Positions 35,939 to 40,324 are shown, counted from the first letter of the stretch. The stretch is 64,000 nucleotides of DNA from Gammaproteobacteria bacterium (GCA_018825965.1 JAHKAA010000051.1:28032-92031); one strand, 5' to 3'. Notes: generated from the letters alone by a model not told the origin. Made by a program: numbers and translations.

Positions 35939-36488
35939 ATGCAAACATCATTCCCGCAAAGCGCTTTGCTTATCGGGATTGCGTGATAAAGCTTCCGTTA
36001 CTTTAGTTCGGGCCATCTGCTCTGCTATTGAACTTTATGGCATACCACGGCTGATACGCACTGACAACGAAGCTGTGTTTACCTCAAGAACTTTTCGTTG
36101 GGCTTTGAAATTCTTAGGAATCAAGCATCAATGCACTGATTTAGGTTGTCCGTGGCACAAAATTGCTTTTCCAATTTTGAACATCGAAGCGCAGCGACGA
36201 TGGCCCGGAGGGTGAGCAATGGCACATTGCGAATAAAATGGTCGTATCGAGAGACTGTTTGGCACCTTCAAACAACAGATCAGAAAAATCATCGTTGAAG
36301 ATGGAATGGCACTTAGCCAACGCTTAGCTGAGTTTCAATTCTGGTATAACGCCATCCGTCCACACCAAAACCTGAAGGGCCAGACACCAGATGAAATCTG
36401 GCATGGCAAAGCAATACCTCGCAGCAAAAACTGGACTTATGTTGAATTCTGGAATGGTGTGCTGCAGGGGTTTTATGCCAGAGAGTAG
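35939..36488 (+). pseudogene. Defective copy of the DDE integrase/transposase at 39209-40090
   Basis: 5' deletion joins ATG to EHHSRKAL; IRTDNEAVF and NGRIERLF retained; interrupted by a 78-bp insertion. Confidence 0.9.
36159..36236 (+). mobile_element. 78-bp multi-hairpin insertion element (MITE-like), copy 1
   Basis: Splits TGG CAC|AAT GGT in the integrase. Shares AA..TTGAAC..GGCCCG.AGGG.GAG..CGA.TA with 39020-39093. Confidence 0.75.
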
Positions 36489-36608
36489 ATTCGACAACGA
36501 GGTGCAAAAAAACAAAAAACACTGTCCGCGCAGGATAGAGGCAGCGGCTACCCGAATAGCCGCGGTTTGCTCAAAAAGAAGACACATTTTTAAAGAGCGC
36601 TAAAAATA

Positions 36609-36717
36609 CTGATCACAATCAGGCATTTTTAGTGAAAAACCAAAGCCGGATTGTTCAACTTTTAAACAAAATGGCGTTGCCAAAACCTTCAATAATCCTA
36701 CCGGACACTCGGACAGG
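36609..36717. repeat. 109-bp repeat R1 (distal part of the 193-bp unit 36523-36715)
   Basis: 6 mismatches in 109 bp versus R3. Confidence 0.95.
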
Positions 36718-36745
36718 CCTCCAAAATTGAAAACAAAGGAACAAG

Positions 36746-37078
36746 TCAATCATTTCTCACCGAAATATAATAGATAGTATCTGACACTGATTGATCAAGG
36801 CAGGCTCCGGCTGTTCTGAATGACACTGTTTTTCCTGCCACAAACGCCATCATCAATACACTCAAATATTCCTTTGCCATAGGGCGGGCCATGCTAAATG
36901 ACAGGTAATCTCCATTGGAGCCATGACAGGCGGGTTTATTTTGTACTCCCCCAACGGGATAGATATAAACCAAATTCCCACCTTCGAACATTAAAATACT
37001 ATCTATTTTAGCGATAGTATCTGCTGCTACCCATGCAGAAAAAAATGATAATACCAATGCGCCTAATATGATTTTCAT
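36746..37078 (-). CDS. Small secreted protein with an AB5 B-subunit-like (OB-fold) motif
   Basis: GGGAG RBS, signal peptide, two Cys, helix-strand KEYLSVLMMAFVAGKTVSFRTAGAC. Confidence 0.7.
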   Translation of the reverse strand: MKIILGALVLSFFSAWVAADTIAKIDSILMFEGGNLVYIYPVGGVQNKPACHGSNGDYLSFSMARPMAKEYLSVLMMAFVAGKTVSFRTAGACLDQSVSDTIYYISVRND

Positions 37079-37192
37079 AACTCTTAACTCCCTTTCTAAA
37101 TTACTGTTTTTACACACTTTGATCCAGCTAATGTCTTACACACCATGACTTAAATTGCTAGCGCCAAAATCACTGTTCAACATATTTGGCAT

Positions 37193-37301
37193 CTGATCAC
37201 AAACAAGCATTTTTAGTGAAAAAACCAAACCAGATTGTTCAACTTTTAAACAAAATGGCGTTACCAAAACCCTCAATAACCCTGCCGGACACTCGGACAG
37301 G
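37193..37301. repeat. 109-bp repeat R2 (solo, no adjacent integrase)
   Basis: Nearly identical to R1 and R3; starts exactly at CTGATCAC. Confidence 0.95.
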
Positions 37302-37821
37302 ACACCCCACTGGTGCATTCCTTAGGTATCAAAGCCATATTGGATGAAAGAACAACTATTTCTTCATACTTATCATCATGCACCGCAGTGAGGGTTAACC
37401 CACCAATTGAAATTGCATAGAGCCTGCCTTTTTTAAACTTGTGGTACTTTTCAATACCGTGGTAAATCCAGAATTTTTTCTCGAATGGCTTAAAATGAAG
37501 TTCACCGGGTTTCACGGAAAACTGATGGCTATTCAAATGGCTCGACATTTCATCAACAACTTTTCCGGGAGTTGATGCTGCTTCAATAAATTTTTCCATA
37601 TCCCATATCGTGAAGCTTGAAGGGTTTATGTGTTCATCACTAATTGCCCCACTTTTATCAATACGTAGTTTGTATGGTGTTTTATTCTCTAATACCAACA
37701 ATGTTTGTGTGGTGCCAGACACACATTTCACATGCACAAATGCATCAATCATTGCTTGTAAATTACTTGCAAGAGCATTTGCGCTAAAAAAAAGAAACAA
37801 AAGCAAACCGATAAATCTCAT
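37273..37821 (-). CDS. Secreted protein, putative immunity partner of the orphan toxin tip
   Basis: Signal peptide; ATGA overlap with the stop of 37818-38753; last ~10 codons run into repeat R2. Confidence 0.65.
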   Translation of the reverse strand: MRFIGLLLFLFFSANALASNLQAMIDAFVHVKCVSGTTQTLLVLENKTPYKLRIDKSGAISDEHINPSSFTIWDMEKFIEAASTPGKVVDEMSSHLNSHQFSVKPGELHFKPFEKKFWIYHGIEKYHKFKKGRLYAISIGGLTLTAVHDDKYEEIVVLSSNMALIPKECTSGVSCPSVRQGY

Positions 37822-38753
37822 TGAAATCTCCCCATGACTGCATATTCAAAAGCGTTTGCGTTTACGCGCAGCTTATCAAGACTCACACTATCGGGCGGAA
37901 AGGCGCTAACTGCGCTGTTAGACATACCTACAATAGTATGGACTGATTGCGTAGCATCTGGATGTGTTAAACCTACTGAATGCCCAATTTCATGAATAAC
38001 TGTATCCAGTCGGTCGGTATGATAACGCGAAAAGTCTATGCCCAACCTAGCACTACCATCCGTAAAATACGCTCCAGACACTCCAGTGACGCTGACTAAG
38101 AGATCAGGGTTTGCTATGTAATGATCAATACTTGTCATCGCCGCTGATGACGTATCTATCAAAAACTGCCTCGTTCCTTCGAACTGGCCATCATCAAGAA
38201 ACCCATAAAGTCGGCGTATTTCGTTATAGCTTCCGGTTTTGTCTGACAAGTCCGCTTTGAAAGCCGCAAGCTTATCCTTTCCATGACTCAATAATTTCAA
38301 AAACTCTTTCCTTTGCCCCGGCGTAAGTGGACCAGCCACCGCATCGCCATCTCCCTTGTTTTGTGCACTGCCCCAATCCGCCATAAGCGCCGCAGCAAAT
38401 GCCCCACTAAAAGCACCATTGGCAAATTTGCTGCCAGTTACTTTTGATATGGTGCCTCCAACTACTGCTGCAACTAAGACTTTTCCAATGGGGTTACTAA
38501 TTCCATGAGAAGCACCTCCCAAGGCAGCACCTAAACCAGCAGCCACGAATCCATGTCCAAATTTACCTCCTTGCATCGTTGAAGCCAAACCACCAATAGC
38601 TGCACTGGCAAGCACTCTTCCAACGCTGCCGCCTCCAGGCATTGCTGCTGTTGTGATACCTGAAACCAATGCTGAACGTAAGCTTCCTGTCACTGCATAG
38701 GTAGATAAGGTGTTATAAGCCACCAAACATACCTGACAATAGAAAGCCAACAC
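37818..38753 (-). pseudogene. Orphan RHS C-terminal tip: Gly/Ala-rich linker plus HExxH zinc-metalloprotease domain
   Basis: GGKFGHGF..FANGAFSGAF linker, TVIHEIGHSVGLTH and NANAFEY; the upstream RHS core is deleted. Confidence 0.75.
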
Positions 38754-38770
38754 GGCAGTAACAACAGCAT

Positions 38771-39170
38771 GCTGCCTTGCTGGTCTTTATGCAGGTAGTA
38801 AGTTTCGTTGGCGCCGTTACTGCGTTTGGTGATGACTGCGTCACCTACATAGTATTTATGTTCCACGACACCTGTAGGTAGCGTGATTTGTTCATACCCA
38901 TCCAGCATCAGCGTTGAGGTGATGTTATTGCCTCTTTTGTCGATGCGCTTAATCAGCTCTCTGTTCGGCCCATACTCAAAGTCCGTAAAATCCGTGTTCT
39001 GCTGAATTCTTGAGGGTTTCTACTCGTCACATCCATGTGACTCGCCCTGCGGGCCGCCGCTTCGCAGCGTTCAACACTTGCTCCTGCAGTGTTGTCAAAC
39101 GCAGTGTAGGTAAAGCTGCGTTTCCCATCATGGGTCACATTGCCATTGGCATCATAACTAAAGTTGTGAT
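38771..39170 (-). pseudogene. RHS core remnant (paralog of 42166-42480)
   Basis: Near-identical DNA to the intact RHS (FSYDANGNVT...YYLHKDQQGS); interrupted by a 74-bp insertion. Confidence 0.9.
39020..39093 (-). mobile_element. 74-bp multi-hairpin insertion element (MITE-like), copy 2
   Basis: Splits TTT GAC|AAA CCC (AFDKP; AFEKP in the intact RHS); same hairpin architecture as copy 1. Confidence 0.8.
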
Positions 39171-39208
39171 AGATCCTTCTCAATCAAATACACCTTGAGA
39201 AGCTATAT

Positions 39209-40090
39209 ATGCTGTTGATTGTATTACTGATGTGCATCCTGAAGTTTTGCTTTCAAACTCATCACAAGAAACACTTCCGTCCACCCTTTAGGAACAAGCC
39301 CGTTTTTTTCCGCAAAGTGCGTACTCATAAAAAACCAGATTGGGCCGTTGTTGAAATTATTCGGTTAAAAGCTCTGATGCCAGACACAGGTTGCCGGACT
39401 TTGGCTGACTTATTTAACCGCCGTTTTGCCACACTTAGAGTTTCGGTGGGTAAAACCTGGGTGTCTTATACCCTGCAACAACATCATCATGCCGTGGTGC
39501 TCAAACGCAAAGAGCTGAAAAACAAAGCACCGTATCAGGTGACTCCCTTTCGGTATTGGGGCATGGATTTAACCGGTGTGACTGACCAGCAGGGCAAAAC
39601 CCATACCGTTTTAGGTATTTGCGAACATCACTCGCGCAAAGCGCTTTGCTTATCGGGATTGCGCGCTAAAGCTTCCGTCACTTTGGTTCGGGCCATTTGT
39701 TCTGCCATTGAACTCTATGGCAAACCCCGGATTATCCGCACCGACAATGAAGCTGTTTTTACCTCAAGAACTTTTCGTTGGGCCTTAACGCTTTTAGGAA
39801 TTAAACATCAATGCACTGACTTAGGTTGTCCCTGGCAGAACGGGAGAATTGAGAGGCTGTTCGGGACCTTAAAAAAGCACATTCGTCAGGTTCTGATCGC
39901 TCATGGTGATGAACTCACTCAACGCTTAGCTGAATTTCAGTTTTGGTATAACGCCATCCGCCCGCATCAAAACCTAAAGGGCCAGACACCTGACGAAATC
40001 TGGCATGGCAAAGCAATTCCTCAAGCCAAAAACTGGAACTATGTCGAATTCTGGAATGGCGTGCTGCAGGGGTTTTATGCCAGAGAATAG
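39209..40090 (+). mobile_element. DDE integrase-core (rve) transposase, IS481/IS3-like, single ORF, apparently intact
   Basis: HTH (GCRTLADLFNRRF) and catalytic WGMDLT / IRTDNEAVF / NGRIERLF, then YNAIRPHQNL.GQTP; hydrophobic N-terminus. Confidence 0.85.
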
Positions 40091-40209
40091 AAAAAAACAG
40101 CAGACCTCAAAAGAACAAAACACTGTCCGCGTTGGATAGAGGCAGCGGCTACCTGAATAGCCGCTGTTTGCTCAAAAAGAAGACACATTTTTAAGGAGCG
40201 CTAAAAACT

Positions 40210-40318
40210 CTGATCACAGTCAGGCATTTTTAGTGAAAAACCAAAGCCGGATTGTTCAACTTTCAAACAAAATGGCGTTACCAAAACCCTCAATAACCCT
40301 GCCGGACACTCGGACAGG
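40210..40318. repeat. 109-bp repeat R3 (distal part of the 193-bp unit 40124-40316)
   Basis: Matches R1 and R2; begins 6 bp after the stop of the immunity gene. Confidence 0.95.
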
Positions 40319-40324
40319 ACAACA

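Follow-up and report, generated by a model that had tools for sequence, protein, structure and literature searches.

The window analysed here, a 64,000-nt stretch of DNA from a Gammaproteobacteria bacterium (GCA_018825965.1, JAHKAA010000051.1:28032-92031), carries a full-length Rhs toxin gene and its immunity-like lipoprotein gene, next to which lie an intact mobile element, an orphan Rhs module, smaller genes and the remains of two more element copies (Table 1). The order along the window is decayed integrase with unit R1, small gene, R2, cassette, intact element and cassette, in one orientation and with no duplications. The 5′-truncated core fragment of the orphan Rhs module abuts the left end of the element; its tip ORF carries an HExxH-like motif with weak metallopeptidase matches, and the insert that breaks the module was confirmed by a contig joint. 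The 123-aa product had no match in Pfam or NCBIfam and, judging from its position, the gene is probably an orphan immunity gene. Homologs of the 213-aa immunity-like gene were found both with and without the element.

Table 1. Features of the locus, in window coordinates
Feature	Position	Strand	Basis or remark
Decayed integrase copy (IS1), 5′-truncated at the equivalent of 39617, 76-bp insert at 36161-36236	35937..36488	+	Alignment
Right arm of decayed copy, contains R1 (36523-36715), tip mutated to GGCC	36489..36718	+	Alignment
Small gene, 123 aa, signal peptide, between R1 and R2	36746..37117	-	ORF call
R2, relic of third copy, only last ~113 bp of right arm	37192..37305	+	blastn alignment
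Immunity-like gene, 182 aa, signal peptide; last ~10 codons and stop inside R2	37273..37821	-	ORF call
Orphan Rhs module, broken by 74-bp insert (39021-39094), without core end	37818..39164	-	Alignment to main Rhs gene
Intact mobile element, 1157 bp	39165..40321	+	Tips TGTGATA... / ...CGGACAGGACA; single ORF; ends strongly asymmetric
Integrase/transposase gene, 293 aa, rve DDE catalytic core, hydrophobic N-terminus	39209..40090	+	Pfam, NCBIfam, homolog alignment, PDB
Right arm of element, contains R3 (40124-40316)	40091..40321	+	Arm length and end motif conserved across family
Inner inverted site TGTCCGCG, inverted copy of terminal repeat unit	40124..40131	+	35 nt past stop
Hairpin GCGGCTAcctgaaTAGCCGC in right arm	40145..40166	+	Sequence and folding
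Terminal triple repeat CGGACAC-TCGGACA-GGACA, element tip	40303..40321	+	Family-wide motif, homology ends there
Immunity-like lipoprotein gene of main Rhs toxin, 213 aa; stop 3 nt from element tip	40325..40966	-	ORF call
Full-length Rhs toxin gene, 2308 aa	40959..47885	-	ORF call; relatives in L007 and L104

The original prediction described a 193-bp unit, starting with TGTCCG, ending with CGGACA and containing a GCGGCTA/TAGCCGC hairpin, behind each of two integrase copies (R1 and R3), with its distal part also standing alone. All of this was recovered: the hairpin is present in both R1 and R3, and R2 matches R3 with 93% identity across 113 nt, which is not chance (blastn E ~1e-43). The conserved sequence extends 5 nt beyond the end first proposed, up to ...CGGACAGGACA. 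Measured from this true tip (...GGACA), the unit adjoins, as had been said, the 3′ ends of three minus-strand genes: the stop lies 3 nt away for the 213-aa gene and 28–30 nt away for the 123-aa gene, and the 182-aa ORF overlaps R2 by ~30 nt.

The element tip is a true mobile-element boundary, and the same architecture recurs across a large family. The right boundary is common to at least nine copies with unrelated flanks; the same tip was observed three times in the window, twice at the related locus L001 and also at L002, L003, L007, L104 and L105. Pairwise homology of related elements in different contexts, examined at 80 distant loci, ends 0–6 nt after GGACA. The left boundary, TGTG(A/G)TA(C/G)A, likewise recurs in three copies whose left flanks are unrelated, those of the window, of R. 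soli L003 and of L104/L105. The two ends are dissimilar: the left end of the window element, TGTGRTA, shares only TGT with the right end (compare TGTGATAGATCC with the inverted right end TGTCCTGTCCGA), so that terminal inverted repeats of the IS481 style are lacking. Most family members, the window element included, have no matching left inverted repeat; a good one was seen in only 3 of ~58 distant loci and, as originally noted, the 39 kb upstream contain no matching repeat for the inverted right end (best 24-nt match 15/24). None of the copies examined showed a target-site duplication, hence a simple insertion was never directly seen; with rearrangement affecting most of them, the sample may contain no primary insertion. 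The element is also of low copy number, its unique part having a contig depth of 14 against 11–16 in the flanks, and the arm is present at only three loci in the species-representative genome scan.

The 193-bp unit is the right arm of this mobile element and not a free-standing cassette site; integrase and 3′ unit are one entity, as had been supposed. A full arm always lies 3′ of an integrase gene or remnant. The triple GGAC motif was found 200–285 nt past the integrase stop in 56 of 70 distant relatives (43–53% identity), while elsewhere it gave 7 matches in 511 kb, mostly additional element ends. A GTCC site, 10–110 nt past the stop, was present in 55 of the 56 motif-positive relatives, and in L002 and L094 the bases on either side of the inner site track the bases around the terminal repeats. 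The arm hairpin fails the terminator scan because it has no T run.

We compared the copies with each other. Over the full 193 bp, 13 differences separate R1 from R3, and 10 of these are transitions. The six differences in 109 nt, all transitions, that had been reported hold for the stretch common to all three copies (from CTGATCACA); the exact 109-nt frames of the original prediction contain eight, of which seven are transitions. The two integrase copies do differ at 23 of 160 positions in the segment counted, 19 of these at third codon positions. That the non-coding unit is more constrained than the gene is true inside this genome but not between genomes, where identity is 83–93% for the arm and 82–90% for the gene; against a 66%-identical relative the arm reaches 44–52% and the gene 64–74%. 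The distal arm of R1 is 93% identical to its paralog R3 and 81% to its ortholog L001a, unlike the decayed coding remnant, which is closer to the ortholog than to the paralog. Judged from these alignments, the similarity of R1, R2 and R3 appears to reflect gene conversion rather than stronger constraint. L001 and L007 of strain YQF-1 have the same decayed-integrase remnant at the corresponding position. The tip of R1 is joined to the window equivalent of 39190 in YQF-1 and of 39392 in L001, and both junctions look like deletions beginning exactly at the right end. The left breakpoint of R2 falls arbitrarily within the hairpin. R2 is orthologous in YQF-1 L006, inherited with the neighbouring small gene (96.6% identity); beyond its tip, L006 carries a different immunity gene and toxin tip.

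The integrase is encoded by one ORF, as in IS481, and matches the Pfam families rve_3 (2.6e-14) and rve (1.9e-10). Residues D120, D179 and E215 are invariant across 16 homologs, and the closest PDB matches are retroviral integrase cores. IS481 (NF033577) was the top NCBIfam match, with 106.9 bits against a cut-off of 224 and an alignment confined to residues 49–262 (model positions 66–281). The IS3 model (NF033516) gave 84.3 bits against a cut-off of 160; the single ORF, without upstream orfA, departs from the two-ORF frameshift layout of IS3, and identity to annotated plasmid IS3 transposases is 25–29%. Three further candidates were rejected: the IS6 family (IS26 itself), since the Pfam and NCBIfam matches were to rve, IS481 and IS3 only; an ISAs1-type (H-rpt) transposase, since the same scans gave no ISAs1-type match for this protein, which matches rve families; and an integron, the enzyme being an rve DDE protein, not a tyrosine recombinase, and the repeats full or truncated transposon arms with differing inner breakpoints. 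The element is thus predicted, from sequence, to be a small unclassified DDE (rve-type) transposon with an intact integrase.

Repeatedly, the element is located between a toxin-immunity pair on its right and a 5′-truncated toxin fragment on its left. Its right end lies a few to ~100 nt from the stop of the immunity gene, and one close lineage is joined to at least five different immunity genes, 3–100 nt from the stop. Close copies are all in Rhs loci except L001b and L002. The full layout (main toxin-immunity pair, element, 5′-truncated orphan with immunity gene, solo end relic) was also observed in R. soli and on two metagenome contigs, and L061 presents the whole of it with a CdiA toxin, the solo end relic lying ~27 nt from the orphan immunity gene. 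The proposed linkage of homologous integrases to toxin cassette boundaries therefore extends to distant relatives and to one CdiA locus. Pfam searches of relatives gave RHS_repeat in L035, L042, L057, L093 and L100, and Fil_haemagg_2 in L061. Rhs-type motifs on the converging strand occurred in 13 of 36 right flanks versus 2 of 46 left flanks (Fisher p = 3e-4, kinship uncontrolled). In 29 of 38 loci the first ORF of the right flank reads towards the element; these ORFs are small and unrelated to one another. Head-to-tail arrangements were seen in the window, L061 and L039, and additional solo end motifs near intact elements in L027, L034, L065 and L099. The flanks of L104 correspond to window positions 43373 and 43556, with 182 bp missing, which suggests an insertion into the toxin core with loss of DNA; L105 has the same left junction, and to the right of the element it carries an immunity gene together with an Rhs tip.

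The association is partial. Of the loci with long flanks, about half or more have no polymorphic toxin nearby. Toxin-antitoxin genes (PIN or BrnT) lie upstream of some relatives and giant RTX-like genes downstream of some, and some adjoin non-toxin genes (FabV, a histidine kinase, a GAF-GGDEF protein). Distant loci with Rhs on the right mostly lack the left toxin fragment (2/46). In sum, the observation made at this locus is confirmed as real, and its interpretation is partly supported.

As many bacteria have relatives placed just downstream of Rhs or CdiA immunity genes and in a single orientation, the element probably helps to assemble arrays of spare toxin-immunity cassettes. We favour, with a probability of about 70%, a reading of the 193-bp unit as the right arm of a DDE element whose arrays were assembled by element-mediated deletions, circles and recombination. 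A possible course is as follows. The transposase would bind an array of CGGACA-type sites in the right arm, one inverted past the stop and three direct at the tip, and would act mainly through this elaborate right end. The element would insert into or beside Rhs or CdiA genes; deletions from its end, or recombination between copies, could then fuse it to the upstream immunity gene, those that lose immunity being presumably counter-selected. The same events might release circles composed of element, immunity gene, toxin tip and core fragment, which could re-integrate beside a resident copy or in the conserved toxin core, like IS26 translocatable units or the Burkholderia megacircle. Repeated rounds would yield head-to-tail arrays with a right end before each cassette, older copies decaying into relics such as R1 and R2 and arms being homogenised by gene conversion. 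A precedent is the IS2-like rve ‘megacircle’ transposon with bcpAIOB (CDI) genes of Burkholderia thailandensis (Ocasio and Cotter 2019, PMC6350997): an IS26-like circle with CDI genes, made of one IS copy and adjacent DNA, was proposed to insert beside a resident copy, giving direct-orientation arrays without target duplications, and the mobilised DNA measures 210 kb. In the present family this circle model accounts for some loci only, and the assembled contigs of the source runs showed neither a circle nor a tandem junction nor any transposition event.

It is also possible, though in our view unlikely, that this is an ordinary IS functionally unlinked to toxins, which accumulates in Rhs and CDI loci because these are recombination-prone, horizontally transferred and insertion-tolerant, the layout resulting from generic decay. 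The relatives beside housekeeping and signalling genes and the largely decayed copies of the window would suit such an element, and IS elements in Rhs loci are classical, as with H-rpt in E. coli (mentioned with Rhs in PMC3032704); orphan arrays are moreover accompanied by transposases as a general phenomenon (PMC4927057). However, the enrichment is strong and specific to orientation and side, the toxin link recurs in lineages only 43–53% identical and with two toxin classes, the close lineage was joined to its various immunity genes near their stops, and copy number is low.

We consider it improbable that the distal ~109 bp forms an integron-like cassette site on each toxin-immunity cassette, with the integrase inserting, excising and shuffling cassettes. 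Three successive right ends in direct orientation, each before a cassette, do recall such an array, a pattern found again in L061 and echoed by the solo motifs near intact elements, and homology between genomes breaks precisely at the tip, which resembles an attI/attC crossover in this respect. Yet a DDE transposase joins ends to targets and does not exchange strands between two sites. The solo copies share no inner boundary (R2 has 113 bp, the L061 relic ~54 bp, others differ), R2 was inherited with its neighbour rather than acquired independently, and homologous immunity genes or cassettes occur without any such site. The autonomous recombination site originally envisaged must give way to a transposon right arm, of which R2 is a truncated relic.

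Least probable of all is the structured RNA also once suggested, a 3′ UTR or small RNA regulating the integrase or the converging toxin-immunity operon and conserved for its structure: the plus strand folds at -62.9 kcal/mol (z = -4.6 versus shuffles; minus strand z = -0.9), pairing between the inner and terminal sites is possible, L002 showing two compensatory changes, and metatranscriptome contigs from related elements cover the arm, but these contigs carry no strand information and may be DNA carry-over, none of the three arm copies matches an Rfam 15 family at E <= 1 (the sole match within 34000-42000, at 39009-39104, is outside them), alifold gives a covariation term of 0.12 for 48 pairs, the hairpin does not qualify as a canonical terminator, the arm interior is unconserved in the 66%-identical relative where the repeated GGAC sites are conserved, and similarity stops exactly at the tip, as expected of a DNA element boundary.

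Among known systems, the transposon described here resembles IS481 and IS3 in its rve/rve_3 core with a DDE triad, its size (~1.1–1.2 kb) and its TG...CA termini. Members of IS481 have terminal inverted repeats of some 20–30 bp starting with TGT and a short target-site duplication. In contrast, most members of the present family have no left inverted repeat to match the right end, the hydrophobic N-terminus of the integrase is not the IS481 N-terminal region, and a non-coding right arm of ~230 bp carries a triple repeat; target duplications were not seen at the copies examined, most of them rearranged.

Like H-rpt in the Rhs elements of E. coli, it is an IS-like component downstream of the Rhs core extension and immunity region. 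H-rpt is of ISAs1 type with conventional ends, and is partly why Rhs loci were called rearrangement hot spots. The window transposase belongs to a different family (rve by Pfam), and for H-rpt we know of no described family-wide, orientation-specific association with immunity genes. The layout is integron-like, with an integrase gene, then a site and beyond it variable cassettes in one orientation. Integrons, however, rely on a tyrosine recombinase and on attC sites, imperfect palindromes that fold and lie at the 3′ terminus of every cassette, whereas the present system has a DDE transposase and its repeats are shortened transposon ends without a common inner boundary.

Multi-copy short binding motifs spread over 100–200 bp are a property of other rve-fold transposases (Tn7 TnsB sites, phage Mu attL/attR, Tn552/Tn402), whose left and right arrangements differ while the same motif is present at both ends and accessory proteins are required. 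The window element, with three direct tip sites and one inverted ~180 bp inward, is built similarly, but has a single gene, and most members of its family show the motif at one end only. The window element differs from the Burkholderia megacircle and IS26 units in transposase family and end structure (IS26 is of the IS6 family), and the segments, 210 kb in Burkholderia, would here be tip and immunity cassettes of 1–3 kb. In the window and in L061, direct-orientation copies alternate with passengers without target duplications, as in IS26-type arrays, and the element shares with the Burkholderia IS2-like megacircle an rve-type IS tied to a polymorphic toxin locus and arrays in direct orientation.

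At 35.3-47.9 kb the window contains an Rhs toxin locus whose reading direction is the minus strand; its features are listed in the table together with those of the element described below. A homolog search found the closest relatives of its integrase in Rheinheimera, and groundwater metagenome contigs matched the window. Two blocks, 17943-29929 (~12 kb) and 31989-35149 (~3.2 kb, with a TonB-dependent receptor gene inside), are present in the window and absent from L001, a metagenome contig syntenic with it. Synteny with L001 is lost for good at the R1 tip, and the region is therefore a variable island.

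Features of the Rhs locus, of the right arm of the element and of toxin-antitoxin pairs in related loci (window positions unless a locus is named)
Feature	Position	Strand	Remark
174-aa ORF with likeness to Rhs N-terminus	35339-35863	+	
Decayed integrase copy, then R1	35937-36488	+	
123-aa signal-peptide gene	36746-37117	-	
R2, solo partial unit	37192-37305		
182-aa signal-peptide gene	37273-37821	-	
Orphan Rhs tip and 5'-truncated core fragment	37818-39164	-	
Intact integrase gene, then R3	39209-40090	+	
Right arm, inverted site TGTCCGCG	40124		just after integrase stop
Right arm, spacer with hairpins			~170 nt, between inverted site and tip
Right arm, three direct sites (tip)	40303-40321		
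213-aa lipoprotein gene	40325-40966	-	
Full-length Rhs gene, 2308 aa	40959-47885	-	
Toxin-antitoxin pairs upstream of integrase in distant loci	L018 2291-2942; L008 2292-2813; L042, L065, L037, L039		

Several parts of this locus are remnants or carry small insertions. The orphan tip ORF (37818-38753, minus strand) contains an HExxH-type motif (HEIGH) with weak metallopeptidase matches (Peptidase_M10, E = 0.0015), and is preceded by a glycine-rich segment typical of Rhs/CdiA pre-toxin regions. As it stands, the orphan Rhs is probably not deliverable, because it lacks the Rhs core end (DPxGL region). Its core is split by a 74-bp insert (39021-39094), and the decayed integrase by a 76-bp insert (36161-36236); their similarity is no more than patchy (TTGAAC...GGCCCG.AGGG.GAG) and runs in opposite orientation. 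A weak Rfam match overlaps the 74-bp insert: AaHKsRNA22, at 30.7 bits (gathering score 39.8; E = 0.011). As sequence 36175-36217 was found in other contexts on contigs of the source metagenome, at least the 76-bp insert is a dispersed small repeat. The 174-aa ORF (35339-35863, plus strand) is similar to the N-terminal region of the main Rhs, with a YD-repeat-like end motif (YNYDNKGRLL). It is kept next to the decayed integrase in three genomes (window; L001 6696-7220; L007 from Rheinheimera sp. YQF-1, 4341-4865) and may be the stump of an opposite-strand Rhs gene.

The original prediction described two 193-bp units, R1 and R3, 3' of the two integrase copies, and a solo copy of their distal part, R2. 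Coordinates, lengths, bounding hexamers, hairpin, the solo distal copy and the distances to three stop codons were all reproduced on recheck. The repeats are not due to chance, since their E-values were 1e-40 or better. Conservation extends to ...CGGACAGGACA (40321). For comparison we retrieved related elements from R. soli (L003), Rheinheimera sp. YQF-1 (L006, L007) and metagenome contigs (L001, L002, L104, L105). Their similarity stopped every time at one common tip, ...GGAC(A/G)GGACA, with unrelated flanks beyond, and blastn homology between related elements in different contexts ended 0-6 nt beyond GGACA. To reach more distant relatives, metagenomes were scanned with 16 aligned homologs, which provided 80 loci of 43-53% protein identity. 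Among the 70 having at least 260 nt after the integrase stop, 56 carried the motif GGAC-N3-5-GGAC-N0-2-GGAC 200-285 nt (median 210) past the stop, and GTCC was present 10-110 nt past the stop in 55 of these 56. The remaining 511 kb of the distant loci contained the triple motif only 7 times, most of these hits marking additional element ends. The 193-bp unit belongs to this right arm (40091-40321), the terminus of a mobile element.

The design of the arm is conserved: an inverted site just past the stop, a poorly conserved spacer and three direct tip sites. In L002, a 66%-identical relative, the spacer was just 44-52% identical and the sites were kept, with common lineage-specific flanks. The ends of Tn7, Mu and Tn552-type elements carry transposase-binding sites, and by analogy we infer that the arm sites are putative sites of this kind. 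Two full copies lie in tandem and direct orientation in the distant locus L039 (1955-3333 and 4122-5480), and closely spaced duplicate right-end motifs, again in direct orientation, were observed in four others (L034 2115/2148, L065 1969/2090, L099 1281/1640, L027 856). These arrangements suggest insertion beside existing ends or repeated duplication of an end. A contig of a related element from the metatranscriptome run X14 omits 496 nt within the integrase gene (window 39446-39943), and is an internally deleted derivative that retained the arm.

At the left end, TGTG(A/G)TA(C/G)A opens three copies whose left flanks are unrelated, those of the window, of R. soli and of L104/L105, 43-44 nt 5' of the integrase ATG; the intact element is therefore 39165-40321, 1157 bp. 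The exact R1 tip runs directly into the interior of the next copy in YQF-1 (39190) and in L001 (39392). These junctions are deletions beginning at a right end; a left end at 39190, taken from the YQF-1 junction, was replaced by the three independent TGTGRTA junctions. The two element ends have only TGT...ACA in common. No inverted copy of the right end was found in the 39 kb upstream of the window integrase (best 15/24). A 26-nt inverted match (38994-39019 versus 40284-40309, 77%) falls within Rhs coding sequence identical in the main gene and was judged due to chance. Among the distant loci, a good left repeat (TGTCCTGTCCG...GTCCGCG) was present in L085, L094 and L100 only, 216-268 nt 5' of the ATG and with a mirror-image inner site. 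Most of the family therefore has no standard inverted repeat, extending what had been noted upstream of the integrases in the window. Target-site duplications were not found at the copies examined. In the distant locus L061, the first 32 residues of an orphan CdiA ORF (4725-4819, minus strand) have no homology to the main gene, resemble a Sec signal peptide (KKLRAVVANLLMTILLLSGANIALA) and are coded next to or within the left end of the element; the start of the window orphan ORF (TTG, 39183) also falls inside the left end. The left end might supply start signals to truncated toxins.

The integrase carries rve and rve_3 domains. Residues D120, D179 and E215 of the DDE triad are invariant in the protein and its homologs, the enzyme looks catalytically intact, and the nearest solved structures are retroviral integrase cores. 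Against the IS481 model it reached 106.9 bits, where the cut-off is 224, and against the IS3 model 84.3, where the cut-off is 160; with scores under both curated cut-offs it is thus related to IS481 and IS3 but a member of neither. Identity to plasmid IS3 transposases was 25-29%. About 1575 homologous protein clusters of ~300 aa each were recovered. Throughout the homologs (39209-39270 in the window; P0001-P0108), a hydrophobic N-terminal stretch of ~20 residues is followed by a basic region; it looks like a membrane anchor or a signal-like segment, odd for a transposase. Immediately 5' of the integrase gene, several distant members encode a toxin-antitoxin pair, which is PIN/VapBC-like in one lineage and of the BrnT/BrnA kind in another. 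In L018 a left repeat may lie ~1 kb upstream with the VapBC-like pair between it and the integrase, which would place the pair inside the element. The plasmid collection contained one distant relative only, from Undibacterium (L106, 40% identity), beside a giant repeat protein: this copy faces the 3' end of a ~13,000-aa 'tandem-95 repeat protein' gene. Members of a Gallionellales-like sub-clade (L008, L046, L048, L058, L060) lie just upstream of giant lipase/RTX-type calcium-binding repeat genes on the plus strand, and the family may have a general preference for loci of giant secreted proteins. The element is unusual for an insertion sequence, with one elaborate end, usually no matching inverted repeat, and scores under the curated cut-offs of both neighbouring families. 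We found no description of this family or its end structure in the literature; beside polyimmunity loci, Zhang et al. 2012 mentioned only XerC/D.

We then considered how the element relates to toxin cassettes. The close clade shows one layout several times over, at independent junctions. Five different immunity-like genes have their stop 3, 14, 28, 54 or ~100 nt from the right end, which in a sixth case lies ~30 nt inside the gene; the left end adjoins Rhs core fragments cut at differing positions (window, R. soli, L104/L105). The L104 copy interrupts an Rhs core; its flanks correspond to window 43373 and 43556, with 182 bp missing and no duplication. L105 has the same left junction, but to its right lie a 178-aa gene and the tip of an Rhs gene. 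Homologs of the 213-aa immunity gene without the element exist (41-63%), too distant to fix the insertion point in an empty-site search. Element copies are arranged head to tail with cassettes between them and without duplications. The assembled contigs of the sequencing runs contained no joint informative about circles or tandem copies. In the distant loci, 36 right flanks were 1.2 kb or longer, and 13 of them carried Rhs-type motifs on the converging strand; among 46 left flanks, 2 did so (p = 3e-4). Pfam confirmed RHS_repeat in five tested loci. The first right-flank ORF converges on the element in 29 of 38 loci. These 38 ORFs are mutually unrelated, as expected of immunity genes, and a conserved accessory gene past the right end was accordingly rejected.

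L061 reproduced the full layout around another class of toxin. First come a CdiA-type gene with hemagglutinin repeats and a gene of 183 aa, then the element, then a 5'-truncated toxin copy that matches the main gene at 98% over 1758 nt and ends in a different tip. This copy is followed by a 105-aa gene and, about 27 nt from the stop of that gene, by a ~54-nt right-end relic. The toxin-immunity association is specific to one side and one orientation. It is not universal: other copies lie beside FabV, histidine kinase, GAF-GGDEF, isocitrate dehydrogenase or giant RTX-like genes. An ordinary IS that accumulated passively may account for part of the pattern, but leaves the side- and orientation-specific enrichment across distant lineages unexplained. 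In L082, three successive Rhs core-end motifs (YTYV..NPL...DP.G) lie right of the element (6938-8681, minus strand); this is an orphan array with the element at its distal end and not between modules.

The original prediction had offered a cassette recombination site or a structured RNA as the role of the 193-bp unit. The link to cassette turnover is real, but the unit is a transposon end and no cassette site: integron-like recombination is unlikely for an enzyme that is a DDE transposase and for solo copies without a common inner boundary. A structured RNA is not supported and seems improbable: the plus strand of the arm folds well (z = -4.6), but the arm showed no covariation and no Rfam match. 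The arm hairpin also failed a terminator scan as an intrinsic terminator.

It had further been proposed that the non-coding part is more constrained than the gene. The underlying count of 23 differences in 160 integrase positions was correct, 19 of the 23 being at third codon positions. The 6 differences in 109 between R1 and R3, all transitions, hold for the part common with R2, but exact 109-nt frames give 8; over the whole unit 13 of 193 positions differ. The R1 distal arm was 93% identical to its paralog R3 and only 81% to the ortholog in L001, whereas the coding remnant beside it was 91-94% identical to the L001 ortholog and 86-88% to the paralog. Inside L001, the two arms were 91% alike. 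This likeness of arms within a genome carries the signature of gene conversion and is no evidence of stronger constraint; it also shows that arms do recombine with one another.

In the furthest-reaching reading, to which we give a probability of roughly one in four, the integrase family would be a dedicated vehicle of polymorphic-toxin cassettes, a one-gene DDE element that acts chiefly via a single elaborate end, comes to lie 3' of immunity genes by targeting that side or truncating back to it, and moves tip and immunity modules between Rhs/CdiA loci as small circles. In the history that we consider probable, the element would insert into or beside toxin genes, and DNA from its end up to the immunity gene would be deleted by intramolecular transposition or inter-copy recombination. 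Deletions would stop at the immunity gene because its loss would mean self-intoxication. The same events would release circles carrying the element, immunity gene, tip and core fragment, which would re-enter next to a resident copy or within the conserved core.

Acquisition, stacking and swapping of Rhs/CDI tips and immunity genes are still explained mostly by homologous recombination. The element family is now defined, widespread and recognizable by a DNA signature (triple GGAC tip ~210 nt past the stop), and has a strong oriented toxin-immunity association in unrelated bacteria and two toxin classes, so that the role of transposition in toxin-cassette turnover becomes directly testable. For this a laboratory strain can be given one gene and one 230-bp arm, and the tip signature can serve annotators as a cassette-boundary marker. 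If true, the dedicated-vehicle reading would add a source of orphan modules other than C-terminal displacement. Orphan arrays hold intervening transposase and integrase genes, and accounts of toxin-cassette turnover noted transposases merely in passing (PMC4927057). CDI genes in Burkholderia thailandensis travel in this way with an IS2-like rve element (PMC6350997), and IS26 translocatable units behave as proposed here, in forming circles and in their re-entry. On the dedicated-vehicle reading, the family would be the integron's counterpart for interbacterial weapons, built on a transposase.
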